A stretch of 60,219 bases of DNA from an uncultured Candidatus Saccharibacteria bacterium (GTDB taxonomy: Bacteria > Patescibacteriota > Saccharimonadia > Saccharimonadales > UBA10212): the NCBI GenBank assembly GCA_964400155.1, contig CAYNSQ010000004.1, positions 1 through 60,219 of the forward strand, read 5' to 3'. The notes under the pieces were generated by a model that was not told the origin of the DNA, did no database searches, and saw only the letters and a list, made by a program, of their open reading frames with translations. Position numbers and translations under genes: made by a program. Shown piece after piece: positions 17,426 through 27,270 of the stretch (position 1 is the stretch's first letter; each line of letters opens with the position of its first letter).

Positions 17426-18319
17426 CTAAACTGGAGATTTGCCGCGTCTCAGATTGTCTCGAATTTTTTGAATTTGGTGTTTTTTACCTAACCAAAAAGT
17501 AGACAGAACAACAGGGAATAACAGTAAAAGTATTGCCCAAAAAAAGACCGGTATTTGTGGTGTGCCAGCAGCTACAGTGTTACCGCCAGCAGCTGATTGC
17601 TGGATTGGCCCATTGGCAATGCCAACCACCTGTAAGAAGGCTGATTGACCAGTAGAATCAGTTGCTTTAATGATAATGTTATAAATTCCTGATTTATTGT
17701 ATGTGTGCTCAAGATCTAGGTTGCCCGGTTCTGACCTGCTTATCAGGTCTGTTTTGCTTTGATCGCCCCAATCTATACTTATGGCATAAGGGCCTTTGCC
17801 TCCACTTAGGGTAATTGGCCAAGTTAGAATAGCCCCAGGATCAGCACCTCTTTTGGCATATAAAGTAGTTAAGGACAGACGTGGTCCGCTTGAGGCAAAT
17901 CCGGTGCTAAAGGTCACACTGACCAAGTTTGAATCAGGACTTGCTTGATTTAGGGCATCATATTGTCTGGCTACTAAATCGTTCTTTCCGTCAAAAAGGT
18001 CAATCTGCATTGAATAACTACTTGCTTTACAAACAGCCGAACCAGCAAATACATTATTTTTGAACACTTCGACTAACAAATCAGTTTTACAAAGACCGCT
18101 GACATTTATTGGCAACGAGTTAAAATTTTGCCCATTGGTCGGTATGTTGATGGTAGGTGCCTGAGTTGGCGGATTGGCTGGAATAACTCCTTCTATCCCC
18201 ACTGAACCGTCTTGCGAAGCAGCATAAGCTACTGGCAATGAACAAATAACAATGAACAATGAACAAACACCAACCAATATGGCGCTTGTGGGTCGGATAA
18301 TGTTTTTATATCCCACCAT
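17426..18319 (-). CDS. Secreted Ig-like/PKD-domain protein with a C-terminal TM anchor
   Basis: Signal peptide, beta-rich domains, PKD-like YAISIDWGD...HTYNKSGIYNIIIKATDS, TM plus basic tail. Confidence 0.7.
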   Translation of the reverse strand: MVGYKNIIRPTSAILVGVCSLFIVICSLPVAYAASQDGSVGIEGVIPANPPTQAPTINIPTNGQNFNSLPINVSGLCKTDLLVEVFKNNVFAGSAVCKASSYSMQIDLFDGKNDLVARQYDALNQASPDSNLVSVTFSTGFASSGPRLSLTTLYAKRGADPGAILTWPITLSGGKGPYAISIDWGDQSKTDLISRSEPGNLDLEHTYNKSGIYNIIIKATDSTGQSAFLQVVGIANGPIQQSAAGGNTVAAGTPQIPVFFWAILLLLFPVVLSTFWLGKKHQIQKIRDNLRRGKSPV

Positions 18320-18339
18320 TTACTAATACCTAAACTTTA

Positions 18340-19419
18340 TTAATATCCTCTATGTGAGTCGCGCTGGTGGGTGCCCTTCTTGTAACGACGTCGAGCATAT
18401 AGTACAGCTACAACGAGTATTCCGACTATGACTAGAATAGCAATGAATAACCAAGCTGGTAAGTACCAAAAACTCTTGCTAAGAACTAGAACATCAGATC
18501 CCTGACCGTAAGATACGTTAGCCGTAACAGTATATCTACCCGGTTTATCTACATTTTTAATTTCATTTATAAAGGTTCTTTTGCTATTAGGTAGTACGTT
18601 TGATTTAACTTTTTGACCATTAAGTTGGTAGCTATATACGCGTCCACCAAAAGTACGACTTACTTCTACGGTTCCGTACGGTTTGGTAAAGCCATTACCA
18701 AGATTGTTAACTTCTACACCAACTCTATTAGGTTGTGAGAAGAAAAGAGTGCTTTCTCGAGGTGCATTTTTTGGACCGTTGTAAACTTTTATACCAGTTA
18801 GCTGAACTTGTTCCTTAATTTGACCAGGTACGGTTACTAACACGATTGTACCTACGCTAGCTGACAAAGAAACTTCACCGGGAGCAGGAGCCGACCCAGG
18901 CACTGCCGGAGAGGCTTTATAGCGAATAACCCCATAATAGGCGCCCGCAGGGGTGTCTTTAGGTACTTGAATGGTTACAGTAACCTTTTTTTGTTCTCCA
19001 ATAGCGAGAGGAACATTATCAAGTCCTACAATAAACTTGCGAATACTATTAGGAGATGGTTCTTCGGTGTCTGAAATAAGTTGCGGGTTGCCGGTTGAGT
19101 TGTCTGACTCAAAGTCATTTATTGTTGCAATGGCATTGAGCGGGTTAACAGTAATGTTCTTTAGTGTAATGTCTACTTTGTCAGCTTGACCTGGTTTTAG
19201 CGTGAATTCAGATAAAGTTGGAGAGATTGAAAGTCCACTGCCAGTAGGAGTCTGTGCCGTAGCAACAGCAGTTAAAAGGATTGGCAAAGATATTGCCACC
19301 AGTACTAACCGTCGGTATTTAGAAATAAATTGCCCCATATATAATGTGTTCTCAAGTAGTATACCAAACATACCTGCTTGCAATAAACCCTGCTTTTGCT
19401 TATTCCTTTTCATAATCAT
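18340..19419 (-). CDS. DUF916-like (WxL-interacting, PapD-like fold) protein with a C-terminal TM anchor
   Basis: GLSISPTLSEFTLKPGQ...ITLKN, VTIQVPKDTPAGAYYGVI, a second Ig domain (VEVNNLGNGF...NVLPNSKRTF), TM plus RRRYKK. True start is probably downstream of 19419. Confidence 0.65.
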   Translation of the reverse strand: MIMKRNKQKQGLLQAGMFGILLENTLYMGQFISKYRRLVLVAISLPILLTAVATAQTPTGSGLSISPTLSEFTLKPGQADKVDITLKNITVNPLNAIATINDFESDNSTGNPQLISDTEEPSPNSIRKFIVGLDNVPLAIGEQKKVTVTIQVPKDTPAGAYYGVIRYKASPAVPGSAPAPGEVSLSASVGTIVLVTVPGQIKEQVQLTGIKVYNGPKNAPRESTLFFSQPNRVGVEVNNLGNGFTKPYGTVEVSRTFGGRVYSYQLNGQKVKSNVLPNSKRTFINEIKNVDKPGRYTVTANVSYGQGSDVLVLSKSFWYLPAWLFIAILVIVGILVVAVLYARRRYKKGTHQRDSHRGY

Positions 19420-20483
19420 TAAAATGAGGCAGTCGCTAAATAAGTAATAGTAGTTGAATAGACACCTGCAGGCTGTGGTCCAGCAGCATTTATGAGATAG
19501 CTGACTGTCATTCGAGTGTAATCTGATGACAAGCTAGAACTGGCAATAGAGTCGCCGTTATTATATGTATAGAAGTTTGGAAAATTATAATTAATCATTG
19601 GTAGTCCCGTGCCCACACCAAATGGTTCCTGGCCAATCGGTGGAGAAGAATTGGCTCTTAAATTAAAACCAAACTGTGAAGAACCAACTAGGCTAGGCTG
19701 GGGTATGCTAAGTTCTGGAATTATATTGTTACCCGATGTCATAGTGTTACCAAGCGCATAGACAACGTAGCCACTCGCATCATTTGTAGCAGCTGAAAAT
19801 TGAGAAGTAGCAGCATTGGCAGTTGTTTTGGATATAATTCCAAGATCTATACTATCTCCTAGCGTTGAAGTGCAGTCCAATGCGACTGTTACGCCTACAC
19901 AAAAGTTAAGAAATGGTGGAATATAAGCTGAAATATCGAGCAACGGATTTATGGCGTAAGCAACTGCCCCTTCGTCAATTCGCGCACCACTACCGTCTAT
20001 GGAAGAGTGGGTACTTATCTGAATAAACTCTGAATGAGGGGCATTAGTAGGATTCACTACGTTATCAAACACGTAACTGCTAGGTACCGTCGCCGCAATG
20101 GCAGAAGGTCGTGTTAGTACAATCATATTTGGTGTTGAATTAATAGTGTCAATACTAAAGCCAGTGTTGCCACTCTGGGAAGACAAAACTGCTCCACTTA
20201 GATCCAAGCCAGTTGGAGGGTCGCAGGGCTGGTCAAAAACCGGTGTATTTTCACAGTACAAAAATGTTATAGAACCAACCGCAGCAACACTACTATATGT
20301 AAAGTTAAATACATGGGTTGTATTGGCACCCGGCGCTCCTGAACCAACGCTAATATTACGTAAGGTGAGCTCAGCAGCACCTACGTTGTTTAAAAGTGTA
20401 AATATTACAATTACCAAAACCGAGATGCTGCCTACAAAGATTGTTCGAAGTGGTATTTTTCTACCCACTACTCTACTGCTCAC
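19419..20483 (-). CDS. Secreted two-domain protein with a WxL/pilin-like C-terminus (paralog 5)
   Basis: Signal peptide, FLNFCVG motif, ends GVYSTTITYLATASF. Confidence 0.7.
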   Translation of the reverse strand: MSSRVVGRKIPLRTIFVGSISVLVIVIFTLLNNVGAAELTLRNISVGSGAPGANTTHVFNFTYSSVAAVGSITFLYCENTPVFDQPCDPPTGLDLSGAVLSSQSGNTGFSIDTINSTPNMIVLTRPSAIAATVPSSYVFDNVVNPTNAPHSEFIQISTHSSIDGSGARIDEGAVAYAINPLLDISAYIPPFLNFCVGVTVALDCTSTLGDSIDLGIISKTTANAATSQFSAATNDASGYVVYALGNTMTSGNNIIPELSIPQPSLVGSSQFGFNLRANSSPPIGQEPFGVGTGLPMINYNFPNFYTYNNGDSIASSSLSSDYTRMTVSYLINAAGPQPAGVYSTTITYLATASF

Positions 20484-20489
20484 AATTAA

Positions 20490-21809
20490 CTAATAAGTTG
20501 TTACAGCTACAAAATCAGTCTGTACGGTATAACTACCAAAAGGTGTAATTAGTGCTGATGTAGCAGCAAATTTAAGAAGTAATGCTTCATCGTCTACATA
20601 AGTTGTAGAAGCAGCGATTTGGTCAAAAGCTCCGGTTTCGTCCCAAGCATAACCGCTTGTAGTTGTACCCGAAACAACCCCAGTGTCGGAAAAATTGGTC
20701 ACATTACTAGCTGTGCCATCACCATCATAGGCCGCATCTCTAACAAGATTGTAGTTAGTTGAGCTGAAAACACATGAATAGCTTGTAGTACTATCACAAC
20801 TTACTCCTGCAATTGTCATTCCAAACTCTTCTGTGCCATTTACAATTGTCCCCTGAGTAGTTCCTTTTGCATTAATGCAGCCATCGGTTGAGACTGTACC
20901 AGCATTACAGTTTGCACCTGATATACGAAGCGTTCCGAGGTGATTAGTGCCAGTGACAGCCTGTATAGCATCGTATGATACAGTGGTGCCGTTAGTTGAG
21001 TTGGTGCGTAGCATAACTAGCCCATTTAAATCATCACCACCATCAACAGCATCTACCGGTGACACATTTACACCGCTGGTAGACAATACTCCAATATTTA
21101 CGCCTGTTCCAGAAACACCGGCACATGAGGTTGGTAGAGTAGATGTAGTCTCAGCGTCGTTTACTGTTGTAGAACCAACACAGAAGTTAAGCACTTCTGC
21201 AACGGCTGCAGAAGTAGTAAGGGTCTGAACAACTGCTGCTGCAGTAACACCATAATCAACAAAACCTGCCCCTGCTGTATAGTTATTTGCATTGTAAAGA
21301 CTGACCCTAGCAAAGAACGTACTGTTGACACCAGAAGGATTTGTTATGGTGTCAAATCGTATAGATCGAGAGGTGGTAGTCTGTGCGGTCGCATCAGTTC
21401 TGTTTGCACATATAATACTGGCACTAGGTGTACAATCATTAGCTCCGGTATTGTCTATAGCGAAGTTGGTCGCTCCTTGCCAACCTGATTGTGTGCCGAA
21501 TGTAACACTACTAAAACTAAGCCCTGCTGGAGCAGAGCAGTTTCCTACGGCAGTAGTACAAGCCTGTACTTTTATTCCCTCAATATCGCTGGTGGATGAA
21601 ACAGTAAAGGTAAAAGTATACTGAACCCCAGTCTTACTTGGGACACCCGATGACAACGCTAATGAGCGGGCCGTAATCTGACCTGCTGCTGAAGCTTGCT
21701 TAATAATTAACACCGGTAAGACAAGAGAGATTACCAGAAGTGCTATGGTGAAGAAAAGCCCAATGTCTTGTACTTTGGCTTTCATGATATTTAGTTTATG
21801 CTTTATCAT
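20490..21809 (-). CDS. Secreted two-domain protein with a WxL/pilin-like C-terminus (paralog 4)
   Basis: Signal peptide, VAEVLNFCVGST, GTNHLGTLRISGA, ends GSYTVQTDFVAVTTY. Start is ATG 21809 or 21785, since the ORF start at 21878 overlaps the upstream gene. Confidence 0.75.
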   Translation of the reverse strand: MIKHKLNIMKAKVQDIGLFFTIALLVISLVLPVLIIKQASAAGQITARSLALSSGVPSKTGVQYTFTFTVSSTSDIEGIKVQACTTAVGNCSAPAGLSFSSVTFGTQSGWQGATNFAIDNTGANDCTPSASIICANRTDATAQTTTSRSIRFDTITNPSGVNSTFFARVSLYNANNYTAGAGFVDYGVTAAAVVQTLTTSAAVAEVLNFCVGSTTVNDAETTSTLPTSCAGVSGTGVNIGVLSTSGVNVSPVDAVDGGDDLNGLVMLRTNSTNGTTVSYDAIQAVTGTNHLGTLRISGANCNAGTVSTDGCINAKGTTQGTIVNGTEEFGMTIAGVSCDSTTSYSCVFSSTNYNLVRDAAYDGDGTASNVTNFSDTGVVSGTTTSGYAWDETGAFDQIAASTTYVDDEALLLKFAATSALITPFGSYTVQTDFVAVTTY

Positions 21810-21828
21810 TATTTTTTTCCATATATCC

Positions 21829-23178
21829 TTAGTAGACAGGTACCGCCACAAAATCCGCTTGAACCGAGTAGCTACCAAAAGGAGCTACCAAGGCTATGCC
21901 GGCTGCAAATTTAAGTATTAGTGCCTCATCTTCAACAAAGCCATTAGGGTTGGAAGATGCGGCTATAGGTTGAGCAGTTCCGGTTTCGTCCCAAGCATAT
22001 CCGTTAGTAGTCGTTCCGCTTGTTGTGTCTGTGTCGCTGAAGTTGCTAGCAGCATTTGTGCCATCGCCATCGTAAGATGCATTCCGGACAAGGTTGTAGT
22101 TTCCACTAGAAAATGTACAGGTGTAGTTAGTGCCACCATTACTTCCACAGTTGGTTGCCGCTACGGTCATGCCAAATTTCTCAGAACCTGCAGTAAAAGT
22201 GGCCTGAGTTGTTCCTTGAGCGTTAATACAACCGTCAGTGTTAACTGTACCTGCATTACATGAAGCACCAGAGATACGAAGCGTACCTAAGTGATTTGTA
22301 CCGCTACCTGCTTGTACGGCGTCGTAATACACAGTCACGCCGTTACTGGCGTTAGTACGTACCATTGCTACCCCGTTGTTCAAGTCACCACCGTTGGTAG
22401 AAGTTACTGGTGATATGTTTACTCGGCTAGAATCAAGTACACCCAAGTTTAGTGACGTGCCAGATACTGTAGTACAGTCGCCAGCAACACTAGTAGTGGC
22501 GTCATTGACTGCGGTTGAGCCAACGCAAAAGTTAAGAACTTCTGCAACACGCGCACTAACTGTAAGGGTTTGAACAATGGCGCTGGCAACTGTTCCAGTA
22601 TCTGTACTGGTTGTCCAGCCAGTGTCGGAGTAAAGTGTAATCCTTACAAAGAAAGCAGTGTTAACTGTAGATGGGTTGGTTTGAGTGTTCCAGGCAACTG
22701 TCTTTGCAGCTGCAGACTCAGCTGCAGCCTGAGTTCGAGTAATACAAAGAACATTGTTGGCAGCAGTACAGCTACCGCTACCACCGGTGCGTGTAAATGA
22801 AGTGGTGTTGGTCCACGAACCTCCAAGTGTACCCTGTTGGGTACCCTGATTTATATTCATGCCGGTTGGCGCGGTGCATGTACCAACCACAGTTGTACAG
22901 GCTTCAAATTTAATTGATTGGATAGCCGAGGCCGAAGACACATAGGTAAATCCGTAGGTATAAATGACATTGGTTGCACTAGCTACAGCTGATGATAAGG
23001 TAAGCGACCTGGATGTTAACTGAGCGGCTTGGGTTTGGGTCATTGTCAGAAGCGGTAAAAGAGAAGAAATGGCTAAAATCAGAACAATAAATGGTATTGA
23101 GACACCTTTGAAAAACCTCCCTACTGCACGGGGGTAATCTACGCACCGCCTGACTCCCTGTTTGAGTTTTAATCCCAT
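21829..23178 (-). CDS. Secreted two-domain protein with a WxL/pilin-like C-terminus (paralog 3)
   Basis: Same motifs as its neighbours; ends GSYSVQADFVAVPVY. Confidence 0.75.
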   Translation of the reverse strand: MGLKLKQGVRRCVDYPRAVGRFFKGVSIPFIVLILAISSLLPLLTMTQTQAAQLTSRSLTLSSAVASATNVIYTYGFTYVSSASAIQSIKFEACTTVVGTCTAPTGMNINQGTQQGTLGGSWTNTTSFTRTGGSGSCTAANNVLCITRTQAAAESAAAKTVAWNTQTNPSTVNTAFFVRITLYSDTGWTTSTDTGTVASAIVQTLTVSARVAEVLNFCVGSTAVNDATTSVAGDCTTVSGTSLNLGVLDSSRVNISPVTSTNGGDLNNGVAMVRTNASNGVTVYYDAVQAGSGTNHLGTLRISGASCNAGTVNTDGCINAQGTTQATFTAGSEKFGMTVAATNCGSNGGTNYTCTFSSGNYNLVRNASYDGDGTNAASNFSDTDTTSGTTTNGYAWDETGTAQPIAASSNPNGFVEDEALILKFAAGIALVAPFGSYSVQADFVAVPVY

Positions 23179-23277
23179 AGCGCTTGTTGCTACTAGTTAT
23201 AGCACGAGCGCTTTACAGATTGCAATAAGAAGTTATAAAAACTGTGGATACATACCTATTAAATCGTCAGTAACGGT

Positions 23278-24606
23278 TTAATAAGTGGTTACCGCAATAA
23301 AATCAATCGGCACATTGTATGTTCCAAAAGGCGTAATTAACGCTGATGTGGCTGCTAGTTTTAACAACAGAGCTTCGTCATCAACGTAAGTTGTTGAAGC
23401 GGCAACCTGGGTAATAGCCCCTGAATCATCCCAGGCATATTGGTTGGTCGTAGTACCAGCAATTGCATTAGTGTCATTGAAGTTAGTCGCGTTGTTTGTT
23501 CCGTCTCCATCATAATTTGCATCTCTGACTAGATTGTAGTTACCGGCACCAAAACTACAGGTATAACTTGTCGTACTTTCACAGTTAACACCAGCTATAG
23601 TCATACCAAAAAGTTCATTCCCATTAGTAATGTTTGATGGTGCCGGGTTGTTGTCGATACAGCCGTCGGTTGTAATACCGTTAGGTGATGCAGCACCATT
23701 ACAGTTGGCACCTGAAATACGTAAAGTACCTAAATGATTAGTGCCTGTCAGTGCCTGAACTGCGTTATACGATACAGTTGTACCATTGGTGGAGTTAGTA
23801 CGCAGCATTACAATGCCGTTAAGATCATTCCCCCCATTTGTCGTTGTTACAGGAGAAACATTCACTTGTGATGTTGATAAAACCCCAATATTAACAGACG
23901 TTCCCGTTACTGCCGAGCAGTCGGCAGGTATAAGGCTGGTAGCTGAACCGGCATTAGCAGCAGTACTACCAACACAGAAATTAAGAACTTCAGCTACTGC
24001 TGCTGTGGCATTGAGCGTTTGCACAACTGCCGAAGCTGTAACTCCGTAGTCTTGTATATTTGCGCCACCAGTATATGCATTATCTGCAAATGTAGTAATT
24101 CTTACAAAAAATGACACATTTACACTTGAGGGGTTAGTTATACCACCAAAAGTAATACTCCTAGATGTTGCAGTCTGGTTGGTTGCGTCTGTTCTGTTGG
24201 AACATAGGACATTTGCTGCCGGCGTGCAGGTGTTTGCACCAGTATTGTCGACTGCAAAATTTGTTGCACCCTGCCAGCCTGTCTGTGACGTATATGTGGC
24301 ACCACTAAAATCTAATCCCGCAGGAGCAGTGCAAGCATTTACTGCCGTGGTGCAGGCTTCAAATTTAAGGCTTTGCACGGTGCTTGTAGCAACTACTGTA
24401 AAAGTAAAGGTATAGCCAACACCGGTGTCACTGGGTATGCCAGAATCTAAAGACAAAGACCTCAGTGCAATTTGCCCTGCTCCGGCTGCCATTTTATTTG
24501 CAAGCACAGGCACCAAAACTATAGCAACAATCACAATATAAAGGCCACCTCGAAGAACATGCCTTTTAGCACGTTTAGCAAATGGCAAGCGTCTGTTTTT
24601 TTTCAT
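23278..24606 (-). CDS. Secreted two-domain protein with a WxL/pilin-like C-terminus (paralog 2)
   Basis: Same motifs as its neighbours; ends GTYNVPIDFIAVTTY. Confidence 0.75.
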   Translation of the reverse strand: MKKNRRLPFAKRAKRHVLRGGLYIVIVAIVLVPVLANKMAAGAGQIALRSLSLDSGIPSDTGVGYTFTFTVVATSTVQSLKFEACTTAVNACTAPAGLDFSGATYTSQTGWQGATNFAVDNTGANTCTPAANVLCSNRTDATNQTATSRSITFGGITNPSSVNVSFFVRITTFADNAYTGGANIQDYGVTASAVVQTLNATAAVAEVLNFCVGSTAANAGSATSLIPADCSAVTGTSVNIGVLSTSQVNVSPVTTTNGGNDLNGIVMLRTNSTNGTTVSYNAVQALTGTNHLGTLRISGANCNGAASPNGITTDGCIDNNPAPSNITNGNELFGMTIAGVNCESTTSYTCSFGAGNYNLVRDANYDGDGTNNATNFNDTNAIAGTTTNQYAWDDSGAITQVAASTTYVDDEALLLKLAATSALITPFGTYNVPIDFIAVTTY

Positions 24607-24724
24607 CTGTTAGGTGGTTTACCTTGCTGTTTGTTTTCGCTAACCTGTTAATTTTATAGCACAACAGGTATGCAAACACAAGCACAATTACAATAGTTTT
24701 ATAAATTGGATCATTCTAGTTGGT

Positions 24725-25465
24725 TCAATAGGATGCAACGACCACTAGATCATGAATCATAGTATAATCACCAGCCGGTGTATCTATTTCGGTGTTGGCA
24801 ATATAACTGATTGTATAGGTAGTCAGCCCCCAGCCACTGCTGCCGGTTTGAGCAATTATATCTCCCATAACATACTTAAATTGGTTGGCAATATCATAAC
24901 CGCTGGCAGCCTGACCAGCAGCAAAACTGCTGTCTGGAAAAGGCACCGGATCTGCTCCAAAAGTAGTCGGTGAAGTGTTGGCTTTTAAATTTATTCCGAA
25001 TTGTTCGACTCCAGTTGTGGGTACGGACTGAGTTACCATACCAGCTAGAGTGTGTGTAACCATTCCGCTAGTCAGCTTTGGCGGTTGACTCATAGTCTGG
25101 ATTGTGTAGCCACTATCCAGGTAGGTTCTAACATGAAAATTAGCCGACCCAGTCTTAGTGCTAGCCACGTCTAAGTAGCCCAAGTCAACCGATGAGGTAT
25201 CAATCCCCATTTCCAAAAAGGGCTCATTTGGAGTTAGAAAACCACTGTAGGCTGCGTAATTTGTACTTGATACCCTATCAACGCCTAGAGCCCCTGTGGA
25301 AGTTTGAGCTTTGTAGTTAGTAGATGCCGAGTCCAAATCACCCCCAGTACCAAAAAAGGTTTCATTCGACTGATAATTGGGCGAATTATACTGAGCCGAA
25401 GCCACAGCCGGTAACAACAGCATAGTCATACCAATTACAGAACCAATTAAACGTAAGCTTTTCAC
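24725..25465 (-). CDS. Secreted protein with a WxL/pilin-like C-terminus (paralog 1, shorter)
   Basis: Signal peptide, EQFGINLKAN (compare SQFGFNLRAN in 19419..20483), ends TPAGDYTMIHDLVVVASY. Confidence 0.7.
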   Translation of the reverse strand: MKSLRLIGSVIGMTMLLLPAVASAQYNSPNYQSNETFFGTGGDLDSASTNYKAQTSTGALGVDRVSSTNYAAYSGFLTPNEPFLEMGIDTSSVDLGYLDVASTKTGSANFHVRTYLDSGYTIQTMSQPPKLTSGMVTHTLAGMVTQSVPTTGVEQFGINLKANTSPTTFGADPVPFPDSSFAAGQAASGYDIANQFKYVMGDIIAQTGSSGWGLTTYTISYIANTEIDTPAGDYTMIHDLVVVASY

Positions 25466-25474
25466 TGTTTAGTA

Positions 25475-26164
25475 TTATATCGCTTCAAAGCTTTTAGCAA
25501 CCCTAATCAGTGTTTGCGGACGTATATCTGGTGTTGTCTCCCTGAAAATAATGACAAACTGGATAGGAGTGCCGTCACTACGTTTCATGTTGAGTCTATA
25601 ATCTCCACCAATCATAGCCAACTGGACTAGATAATTTGGATTGTCCGGATCGCACAGCATAGTAGCATTATCAATAACTACGGGTTTAATTATATGTGGG
25701 TCTTTTCCATATGTTTTGCCACATGGTTCTGATGTGATTGTAACGTCTAAGCTGTTGTCATTAACTAGTCGCACTGGTAAAACTCTTGGGGTGGCGAGAT
25801 TTAGAGGTATTGGAACCTGATTGACATATACGATCATTTGAGACAATATATCCCGCTTTCGATATTTATCGTAGACAAACATATTTGGAGTGGACCGTTC
25901 TTTCTCAAGTACCCACTTAGAGGTATCCTGGAATTTAAAATATGGAGAAGTCATTGTTACCAAATTGTCTGAAATTATTCTAGTTTCTATTTTAGAAGCT
26001 CTGGATGATTCTGGGTCTTTGTTAATTAGGTCCCAAATTAACCACCCTCCGACTAAAATCAACACCACAATAAACGCACTCAGCCAACGCAACATATTGC
26101 GAAAGCGGTTATATCTGTATCCCCGAACGCTACGACGGTATTCATATTTGTGATACATGCTCAT
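25475..26164 (-). CDS. Hypothetical bitopic membrane protein heading the surface-protein cluster
   Basis: Arg-rich N-terminus, one TM, extracellular domain with a Cys pair. Confidence 0.7.
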   Translation of the reverse strand: MSMYHKYEYRRSVRGYRYNRFRNMLRWLSAFIVVLILVGGWLIWDLINKDPESSRASKIETRIISDNLVTMTSPYFKFQDTSKWVLEKERSTPNMFVYDKYRKRDILSQMIVYVNQVPIPLNLATPRVLPVRLVNDNSLDVTITSEPCGKTYGKDPHIIKPVVIDNATMLCDPDNPNYLVQLAMIGGDYRLNMKRSDGTPIQFVIIFRETTPDIRPQTLIRVAKSFEAI

Positions 26165-26256: not shown

Positions 26257-27270
26257 ATGCCTGAAGGCCAACCAACCGCACAAGAACCAGAAGAAGAGTC
26301 CCTAGACACCGTAGAAATGGAATCTAACACTCCAACACCCTCTCCGTCAGCGGCGGGGACTGCTCAAGACGTCAAAAAACCAGATAAAAAAGATGACAAA
26401 CAGCCTGTAGCAAATGTTGAACAGTCAAAAAAGTTGGGCAAGATTCGAGGTTTTAAGAACTTGTACTTCTATATTTATATCCTAGTAGTTATCCTTGGTG
26501 GACTAATTGTGGCGGCTGCTTATATCTACAATAAAAGAGCCCCAAAAACCGAACCTCTAACTACTAAGTCATTGACATCTGAACAGCTTTCACAATTACA
26601 AGGACCAACCACTATAGTAGGAGACCCTAAGCAAACCCTTGATATTCAAAGTAATGCTATTTTTGAGGGAGCAATCTTATCTCGAGGCAATGTAGATATA
26701 GCTGGATCTCTAAAAATCGGTGGTGCTTTATCGTTGCCATCCATAGTGGTATCTGGCGATGGTAGCGTCGGTAAGTTTGCTGTTAATGGTAGTTTGGGCG
26801 TTGCCGGAGATACAACTTTGCAAGGCCAAGTTACATTACAAAAGAACTTAACTGTGCAAGGATCAGCCAGCGTAAGCGGAGCACTATCTGCTGGATCACT
26901 TAGTGTGTCAAATTTTCAACTCACCGGCGACTTAACTATAGCCAGACATATCGTTGGCTCTGGAGGAATCCCCGGTAAGTCAAATGGAACCGCTCTTGGT
27001 GGTGGGGGATCAGCCAGTCTAAATGGTAGTGACACGGCAGGAACAGTAACTATAAATACCGGTGGTAGTCCACCGACCGGTTGTTTTGTAACTGTCAATT
27101 TTGCTAACAAATATTCAGATACACCGCATGTGGTTATTAGTGCTTCCAATTCTTCTGCCGGTGGATTAAATTATTATACAAATAGGTCAAATACTAACTT
27201 CAGCATATGTACAGCTAACGCCCCGACAGCGTCCACCACTTACATCTTTGATTATATCGTTATCCAATAA
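26257..27270 (+). CDS. Membrane-anchored protein with Gly-rich beta repeats and a tail-fibre-like C-terminal domain
   Basis: Acidic N-terminus, TM, repeated GxLxVxG-type strands, VTVNFANKYSDTPHVVIS. Confidence 0.65.
   Translation: MPEGQPTAQEPEEESLDTVEMESNTPTPSPSAAGTAQDVKKPDKKDDKQPVANVEQSKKLGKIRGFKNLYFYIYILVVILGGLIVAAAYIYNKRAPKTEPLTTKSLTSEQLSQLQGPTTIVGDPKQTLDIQSNAIFEGAILSRGNVDIAGSLKIGGALSLPSIVVSGDGSVGKFAVNGSLGVAGDTTLQGQVTLQKNLTVQGSASVSGALSAGSLSVSNFQLTGDLTIARHIVGSGGIPGKSNGTALGGGGSASLNGSDTAGTVTINTGGSPPTGCFVTVNFANKYSDTPHVVISASNSSAGGLNYYTNRSNTNFSICTANAPTASTTYIFDYIVIQ

Follow-up and report, generated by a model that had tools for sequence, protein, structure and literature searches.

Positions 17426-26164 of a 60,219-nucleotide stretch of contig CAYNSQ010000004.1 (assembly GCA_964400155.1), referred to here in its entire length as the window and derived from an uncultured Candidatus Saccharibacteria bacterium, very probably hold a pam operon, which encodes an usher-less, chaperone-assisted pilus formed by donor-strand exchange in Saccharimonadia of the Candidate Phyla Radiation (CPR; Patescibacteria). 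This identity is drawn from the agreement of NCBIfam models, protein fold and synteny with the Pam system. Established directly are the family identities of the products, their domain architecture, the fold of the chaperone, the synteny of the cluster and the presence of a second locus in the same genome. A reading of the DNA made without database searches, termed here the original prediction, had proposed for the same eight genes an usher-less fibre or lattice composed of five WxL/pilin-like paralogs, a DUF916-like protein and a membrane-anchored immunoglobulin (Ig)-type protein.

Pam pili are known from thin filaments isolated from the saccharimonadial parasite Ca. Mycosynbacter amalyticus (Troman et al., bioRxiv 2026; PMC13278184), an organism described there as preying on Gordonia amarae. 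Two of its filaments, PamA and PamB, were solved by cryo-electron microscopy (cryo-EM). In these structures, the linker of each pilin is given to the adjacent subunit by donor-strand exchange, and PamA and PamB form linear helical filaments (PMC13278184). On the basis of AlphaFold models, the same study proposed transmembrane-anchored, PapD/FimC-like chaperones (PamC and PamD), an additional pilin (PamE), a tip protein with one domain (PamT), an RbmA-like transmembrane-anchored terminator (PamR) and the absence of any trans-envelope machinery (PMC13278184). The system is already known, with structures from cryo-EM, a model proposed for its assembly and its own NCBIfam models, and the present locus in itself adds little to it.

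The family assignment is carried by three NCBIfam models that derive from the M. amalyticus study (PMC13278184). PamT scores 263.8 bits against the equivalog model NF058579 CPR_pilus_PamT (cut-off 240), and PamR scores 361.6 bits against the equivalog model NF058578 CPR_pilus_PamR (cut-off 300). The model of the Pam pilin C-terminal domain, NF058581, is matched by the pilin of 354 amino acids (aa) at 157.2 bits (cut-off 55) and by PamT at 135 bits. Further features held in common with the Pam pilus include two-domain pilins with a conserved linker and paired cysteines, a transmembrane-anchored two-domain chaperone, the lack of an usher and of sortase signals, and a saccharimonadial host.

Gene order points to the same system. 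The local order of PamT, large pilins, 354-aa pilin, chaperone and PamR equals the M. amalyticus order of PamT, PamA, PamE, PamD and PamR, the latter being inferred from accession numbers (PamE, WP_…285, which contains a typing error in the paper; PamD, WP_260763284; PMC13278184). It is from this succession of PamE and PamD accessions that the 354-aa pilin is placed in the PamE position. To survey relatives, species-representative genomes were scanned with the chaperone profile, which yielded 47 related loci, nearly all of them titled Candidatus Saccharibacteria or Saccharimonadales; the ORFs (open reading frames) of these loci were classified by phmmer. The recurrent order is atpD, atpC, an oppositely oriented bactofilin-like gene, orf229, PamT, between one and three large pilins, a pilin of the 354-aa type, the chaperone, PamR, mnmA and alaS. 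This order is complete wherever a contig spans the whole cluster; contig ends cut many of the 47 loci. The nearest relative has a chaperone of 84 % identity, and almost every related locus has a pilin of the 354-aa type. The atp operon and a "tail fibre-like" gene thus adjoin the cluster as in M. amalyticus, where the pam neighbourhood contains ATP synthase genes together with one whose product is called "tail fibre-like" (PMC13278184).

The cluster is filled by eight successive minus-strand ORFs separated by gaps of -1 to 118 nucleotides (Table 1). It is flanked on one side by a divergent plus-strand gene, and mnmA and alaS lie downstream. All eight products carry an N-terminal hydrophobic segment by hydropathy and motif script, and by hydropathy the 359-aa and 297-aa products additionally carry a C-terminal transmembrane segment. 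The C-terminal strings quoted in the original prediction for five of the proteins are present verbatim in the translations, as is the motif LNFCVG in four proteins of the cluster. The number of cysteines is even: the mature large paralogs have 10 each, the 354-aa pilin has four and PamT has none. The 449-aa paralog has one additional cysteine, C12, ahead of the signal-peptide core. A motif script detected LPxTG in none of the eight products, and an usher (PF00577) is matched nowhere in the genome. Two sortase genes are encoded elsewhere (C5:5230-5628 and C32:3947-4345; 97 bits each on PF04203), on contigs other than those of the pam loci and linked to neither locus. A promoter-like site lies at 26242-26214, just 5ʹ of orf229; counts of promoter- and terminator-type sites in the region are no higher than in shuffled sequence.

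Much of the original prediction is borne out by these results. Eight co-directional genes for exported or membrane-anchored proteins, five of which share a C-terminal pattern, are confirmed by the ORFs, the verified strings and profile-profile alignment. The proposed fibre, stabilised by disulfides, assembled by a chaperone without an usher in a monoderm episymbiont and ended by a transmembrane-anchored Ig-type terminator, corresponds to the Pam pilus in hidden Markov models (HMMs), fold and synteny. The stated absence of LPxTG signals and an usher is upheld, sortases being encoded only on other contigs. The prediction also turned on whether the genes occur together in other genomes, and they do so in most of the 47 related loci. 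Of the eight products, that of orf229 is no recognisable fibre subunit.

The chaperone consists of a signal peptide, two beta-sandwich domains, a C-terminal transmembrane helix (residues 322-353) and a basic tail; the two domains and the helix are seen in its AlphaFold2 (AF2) model (predicted local distance difference test [pLDDT] 85.2). Its best Foldseek matches in the PDB are 9i1y and 9i25 (E 3e-10 to 8e-10), structures of WxLIP from E. faecium, the latter bound to a long WxL protein; the alignment with WxLIP extends over 281 columns. The next matches are CfaA, YadV, CsuC, EcpB, Caf1M, FimC, SafB and DraB (E 1e-6 to 2e-9).

WxLIP belongs to the DUF916/DUF3324 proteins, as does ElrE of the WxL/Elr pilus, which Enterococcus faecalis shares with other Bacillota. 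Among the components of this pilus, ElrA-E, the tip is ElrA, and ElrB, which carries LPxTG, is a terminator anchored by sortase; for ElrE, biochemical experiments showed that it primes and nucleates polymerisation (Sleutel et al., bioRxiv 10.64898/2026.10.17.759780). Against PF06030 (DUF916/WxLIP_PGBD; gathering score 27.3), the window chaperone scores 22.6-24.1 bits, so that its formal membership in this Pfam family is marginal, whereas the paralogous chaperone on contig C29 scores 28.5 bits. Of 45 chaperone homologues, 37 match PF06030 at E ≤0.01, and none matches PF00345 (PapD_N) at the same threshold. PF06030 matches are present in 39 of 101 Saccharimonadia genomes (20 over the cut-off), and in several genomes (G109, G218 and G277) such a match lies beside Pam pilin matches.

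Profile-profile comparison extends this relationship. Seven Bacillota DUF916/DUF3324 chaperones from WxL loci, including the locus of ElrE, served as the comparison set for hhalign. A profile of the close chaperone homologues aligns with this set over the N-domain (probability 92.4 %, E 5e-7), and a broader family of 52 Pam chaperone sequences matches it over 247 columns that cover both domains (97.9 %, E 3e-13). Controls with a reversed target, other Pam families and a WxL profile remained at ≤47 % over 17-62 columns. PF11797 (DUF3324) gave no HMM match in the chaperone homologues, and the C-terminal domain alone compared with DUF3324 profiles is non-significant, both domains being bridged only by the alignment of the broader family. 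Pam chaperones further possess an invariant strand, VSLSASVGTIVLVTVPG (residues 183-199), which lies approximately where the Elr preprint places the donor strand of ElrE, at the start of the second domain. Pam chaperones and the DUF916/DUF3324 (WxLIP/ElrE) chaperones are most likely homologous, and the "DUF916-like" label of the original prediction gains support from sequence, profile and structure alike.

The pilins form a second line of evidence. Five of the products share a homologous C-terminal domain, with a similarity far beyond chance. Using families assembled from the related loci, hhalign joins the large-paralog family to the 354-aa family over their full length (probability 100 %, E 2e-55), the large-paralog C-domain to PamT (96.7 %, E 4e-10) and the 354-aa C-domain to PamT (99.8 %, E 2e-29). 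Paralog 1 (442 aa), with identities of 65 % and 50 % to the remaining large paralogs, is composed of a signal peptide, a beta-sandwich N-domain, a conserved linker with LNFCVG and an enlarged C-domain, with 10 cysteines in all. Among the three tandem paralogs, divergence is found mostly in the N-domain; linker and C-domain agree. In the PamA-like family alignment, the conserved cysteines are closely spaced (C76/C83, C118/C126, C202/C221 and C293/C303).

The linker has the properties expected of a donated strand, being both conserved and unpaired. In the AF2 model of shaft-pilin paralog 3 (pLDDT 81.5), which predicts two beta domains, linker residues 184-195 are modelled with low confidence and without pairing, yet they are highly conserved. 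The most conserved 12-mers of the shaft-pilin family lie in the linker (179-190, and 193-204 with its LNFCVG), in a C-domain strand (398-409) and elsewhere in the C-domain (279-290), and the last residues of the family are also highly conserved. From this linker, highly conserved yet unpaired in a low-pLDDT segment, donor-strand exchange is proposed for these proteins. Closed and complete C-terminal folds would have counted against the original prediction; the monomer model, with its conserved yet unpaired linker, suggests instead that a strand may be available for a neighbour.

PamT contains the acceptor C-domain alone, preceded by a signal peptide, and lacks an N-domain, a linker strand and cysteines. 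The mature N-terminus of PamT (residues 25-75) additionally bears three conserved S-x-N-Y-x-A repeats before the acceptor domain; these might complement the protein's own groove or form an adhesive tip. PamR is an RbmA-like tandem Ig/fibronectin type III protein with a C-terminal transmembrane anchor at approximately residues 249-280 and weak PKD matches under the cut-off. Its conserved N-terminal strand reads GSVGIEGVIP here and GSVG(V/I)EG(T/V)IP in the family. PamR is proposed to serve as both terminator and membrane anchor, and the 354-aa pilin is probably the proximal adaptor that accepts the N-terminal strand of PamR.

A second pam locus is present in this genome. It extends over C21:7888-9781 and C29:15-3139, and the last 55 bases of C21 are exactly the first 55 bases of C29, an overlap on which the continuity of the locus is based. 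Its order is PamT2 (285.7 bits against the PamT model), two pilins of 360-365 aa, another chaperone and a further PamR-like protein, and it carries three more Pam pilin C-domains. The pilins share six cysteines, equal to the PamB pattern of three pairs, and B2 has a seventh cysteine in its last strand. The genome thus holds two self-contained pam sets, both of which comprise a tip, pilins, a chaperone and an anchor, which suggests two self-contained pili instead of one mixed operon. In this respect the organism differs from M. amalyticus, in which both chaperones and both major pilins are encoded in a single operon; here the main operon has one chaperone, and the PamB-like pilins, the second chaperone and another PamT and PamR are found in the separate C21/C29 locus.

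Several observations weigh against assigning the cluster to the Pam system in every part. The three large paralogs have no direct NF058581 match; they are smaller than the PamA of M. amalyticus (approximately 41-43 kDa mature vs 55 kDa), contain five cysteine pairs where PamA has two, and occur as three tandem copies, unlike the arrangement in M. amalyticus. For these reasons of model match, size and cysteine pairing, their orthology to PamA is positional, not proven. The labels PamA and PamE are likewise given by position and architecture, M. amalyticus being outside both the 47 loci and the best 120 protein matches. A whole-chain Foldseek search with the shaft pilin returned generic Ig adhesins only, at a template-modelling score of ≤0.23; these two-Ig adhesins include integrin legs, MSCRAMMs, CfaE and CupB6. 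Moreover, the chaperone role, the subunit order and the anchoring by PamR are proposed from AlphaFold models in the reference organism too, and metatranscriptome runs of a related sample contain 0 words of 20490-24606. Sequence searches of a PDB copy that holds no Pam structures, using the shaft pilin, the 354-aa pilin and profiles of PamT, the chaperone and orf229, produced nothing meaningful.

Applied to this locus, the Pam model leads to an assembly pathway from which we infer chaperone action, subunit order, anchoring by PamR and host attachment, with a role for orf229 as a further possibility. All products would be exported by Sec through their signal peptides. A strand of the membrane-tethered chaperone, for which the invariant VSLSASVGTIVLVTVPG is the candidate, would cap the open groove in the C-terminal Ig-like domain of each pilin. 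PamT would nucleate the distal tip, since it has an acceptor domain and lacks a donor linker. An incoming two-domain pilin would then displace the chaperone and place its conserved linker between the domains (…AAVVQTLT..AAVAEVLNFCVG…) in the groove of the subunit before it, and the fibre would consequently grow at its base. The shaft would be made of the three tandem PamA-position paralogs, with diverged N-domains exposed and linker and C-domain conserved, and the 354-aa PamE-position pilin would be the proximal adaptor. PamR would give its N-terminal strand and, having no acceptor domain, would end growth and retain the fibre in the membrane by its transmembrane helix. The subunits may be stiffened by intramolecular disulfides, of which a shaft pilin could have as many as five pairs. 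No ATPase, usher or sortase would be needed, as there is no outer membrane to cross. The likely function of such a fibre would be to reach and attach to the host bacterium.

The kinship of the chaperones raises the question of whether the locus is a true member of the Bacillota WxL/Elr pili, acquired by or common to CPR, instead of a separate Pam system. The two systems have in common the homologous chaperone, with its DUF916 N-domain, second beta domain and C-terminal transmembrane helix, as well as usher-less donor-strand exchange in a monoderm with an acceptor-only tip and a donor-only terminator. The two-domain profile alignment, the C29 chaperone over the PF06030 cut-off and WxLIP as the best fold match all speak for this reading. 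The C-terminal strands are also alike (pilin GVYSTTITYLATASF and ElrD AYKTTITWTLANTPA), which may reflect an equal structural role and is otherwise anecdotal. However, membership in the WxL/Elr system is improbable to a high degree, because the resemblance ends at the pilins and the anchor. PF13731 (WxL) has no match in the genome; a 24-sequence WxL profile, full-length and domain-trimmed, is non-significant against Pam C-domain profiles (≤13 % over the WxL comparisons), as is ElrD, taken from the synthetic insert of the Elr preprint. The PamT profile and its members retrieve nothing in PDB or Pfam, no WxL chain is among the best 50 fold matches listed for the shaft pilin, and PF11797 is undetected by HMM. 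The Pam donor strand is an inter-domain linker, whereas that of Elr is an N-terminal extension, and the terminator is anchored by a transmembrane helix (PamR) instead of by LPxTG and sortase (ElrB). The original prediction had likened the pilins to WxL proteins; PF13731, profile-profile, Pfam/PDB and fold searches detected no WxL relationship in them.

It might also be argued that the proteins form a non-filamentous surface complex or lattice, in which the two-domain transmembrane protein is a static scaffold that binds the paralogs and not an assembly chaperone. The chaperone function of the CPR proteins is a proposal, a lattice was among the suggestions of the original prediction, and DUF916/DUF3324 proteins were originally reported as WxL-binding surface linkers (PMC10599100). 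Nevertheless, such a scaffold is quite unlikely: cryo-EM shows the homologous PamA and PamB as linear helical filaments, which leaves the lattice unsupported, the homologous ElrE primes and nucleates polymerisation in biochemical experiments, and a tip-only PamT together with a donor-only PamR suits a polar fibre, not a lattice. Covalent polymerisation of the subunits by one of the two genome sortases, as in sortase-dependent pili of gram-positive type, can hardly be entertained. The organism is a monoderm and encodes both enzymes, but they lie on contigs C5 and C32, the eight proteins lack an LPxTG-like signal, and the C-terminus of the pilins is a conserved beta-strand whose terminal residue is aromatic, not a sorting signal followed by a transmembrane tail; a sortase pilus was accordingly rejected for want of sorting signals. 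A classical chaperone-usher system was rejected as well, there being no usher and no outer membrane. The Pam pilus does resemble chaperone-usher pili in its two-domain Ig-like chaperone, in an incomplete Ig-like pilin domain finished by the strand of a neighbour and in a tip-to-base order with a terminator subunit. Unlike those pili, it has a membrane-tethered chaperone without a PF00345 sequence match and pilins with an extra N-domain that build an extended, uncoiled fibre.

Table 1. Genes of the pam cluster and the adjoining gene, with positions in the window
Feature	Position	Strand	Description
orf229	25475-26164	-	229 aa, first gene of cluster
PamT	24725-25465	-	246 aa; NF058579 equivalog
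PamA-position major pilin paralog 1	23278-24606	-	442 aa; paralogy, hhalign
PamA-position major pilin paralog 2	21829-23178	-	449 aa; paralogy, hhalign
PamA-position major pilin paralog 3	20490-21878	-	462-aa ORF; gene-called form P0121 = 431 aa, start 21785
PamE-position two-domain pilin	19419-20483	-	354 aa; NF058581; directly upstream of chaperone
Membrane-anchored pilus chaperone (PamD/PamC type, DUF916/WxLIP family)	18340-19419	-	359 aa; fold, profiles
PamR	17426-18319	-	297 aa; NF058578 equivalog
Transmembrane-anchored bactofilin-like beta-helix protein, conserved neighbour	26257-27270	+	PF04519

For the third large pilin and the chaperone, the longest ORFs are likely too long at the 5ʹ end. 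The gene-called start of the former removes the overlap with the upstream gene, and chaperone homologues of approximately 325-335 aa suggest M28 as the start of the latter, at approximately 19338.

The first gene of the cluster, orf229, encodes a type II membrane protein with an N-terminal transmembrane segment (approximately residues 21-49), a conserved Y-x-Y-R cytoplasmic start and two invariant cysteines, C148 and C171. It adjoins PamT in 18 related loci, standing before it in 15 and after it in three (L026, L028 and L034). Its family comprises 482 clusters at 50 % identity, all of approximately 225-235 aa, and has no matches in Pfam, NCBIfam or PDB. The product is a conserved membrane protein with no recognisable likeness to a fibre subunit, and, despite its conserved place upstream of PamT, it is not named in the Pam preprint.

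On the other side of the divergent start lies the bactofilin-like gene, the product of which matches PF04519 (Bactofilin) at 29.2 bits (cut-off 27.9) and has a cysteine-containing C-terminal domain. In 26 related loci it is a neighbour of the pam cluster, and with few exceptions it sits between this cluster and atpC, encoded on the opposite strand. This gene is probably the "tail fibre-like" neighbour of the Pam preprint; it is regarded as a conserved neighbour, not as a demonstrated pilus component.

Beyond the close relatives, 77 of 301 sampled Patescibacteria genomes contain the Pam pilin C-domain (27 over the cut-off), and none of 14 control genomes does. In other Patescibacteria (e.g., G197, G020, G139 and G175), this domain terminates very long frames of approximately 800 to >6000 aa, with 12 such matches in G197. 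The arrangement recalls WxL tip adhesins, by analogy with which the C-domain may be a constant attachment module joined to a variable payload. Four of the related loci (L012, L041, L044 and L045) display the saccharimonadial order of pam cluster, mnmA and alaS in metagenome-assembled genomes titled Babeliales, Limnocylindria, Limnocylindrales and Pseudomonadota; these contigs are probably mis-binned. In four close relatives (L007, L012, L017 and L027), a second PamR-like gene is situated just 3ʹ of alaS; in the present genome, the PamR paralog is on C29. As for environment, four metagenome runs from bioreactors, in which the organism is abundant, contain DNA near-identical to 20490-24606 (91-97 % of sampled words); biofloc and sludge metagenome runs contain it in part. 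Gordonia amarae, the prey of M. amalyticus, is a foaming organism of activated sludge.

The original prediction, working from sequence only, independently reproduced the published Pam model, and its DUF916-like call links two systems that the literature consulted treats separately. The two 2026 preprints present their systems as lineage-restricted and do not mention each other: Elr is reported as confined to Bacillota, with no mention of CPR or Pam (bioRxiv 10.64898/2026.10.17.759780), and WxL and DUF916 go unmentioned in the Pam preprint (PMC13278184). Both the Bacillota-only claim and the CPR-only framing probably understate a wider family of monoderm chaperones. More tentatively, the Pam pili of CPR and the WxL/Elr pili of Bacillota could be two branches of one ancient monoderm machinery, with related acceptor domains that have diverged beyond detection by sequence. 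If so, the common core would be a membrane-tethered DUF916/DUF3324-type chaperone and usher-less donor-strand exchange; a common origin of the whole system, pilins included, is much less certain than the homology of the chaperones. For the organism itself, the two loci and the triplicated shaft pilin with its diverged N-domains bear on the question of mixed versus separate fibres and on variation in host range. Finally, given that Pam chaperones are homologous to those of the ElrE type, the results obtained with ElrE can be transferred as a hypothesis, and its biochemistry becomes a directly testable one for the pili of CPR bacteria.

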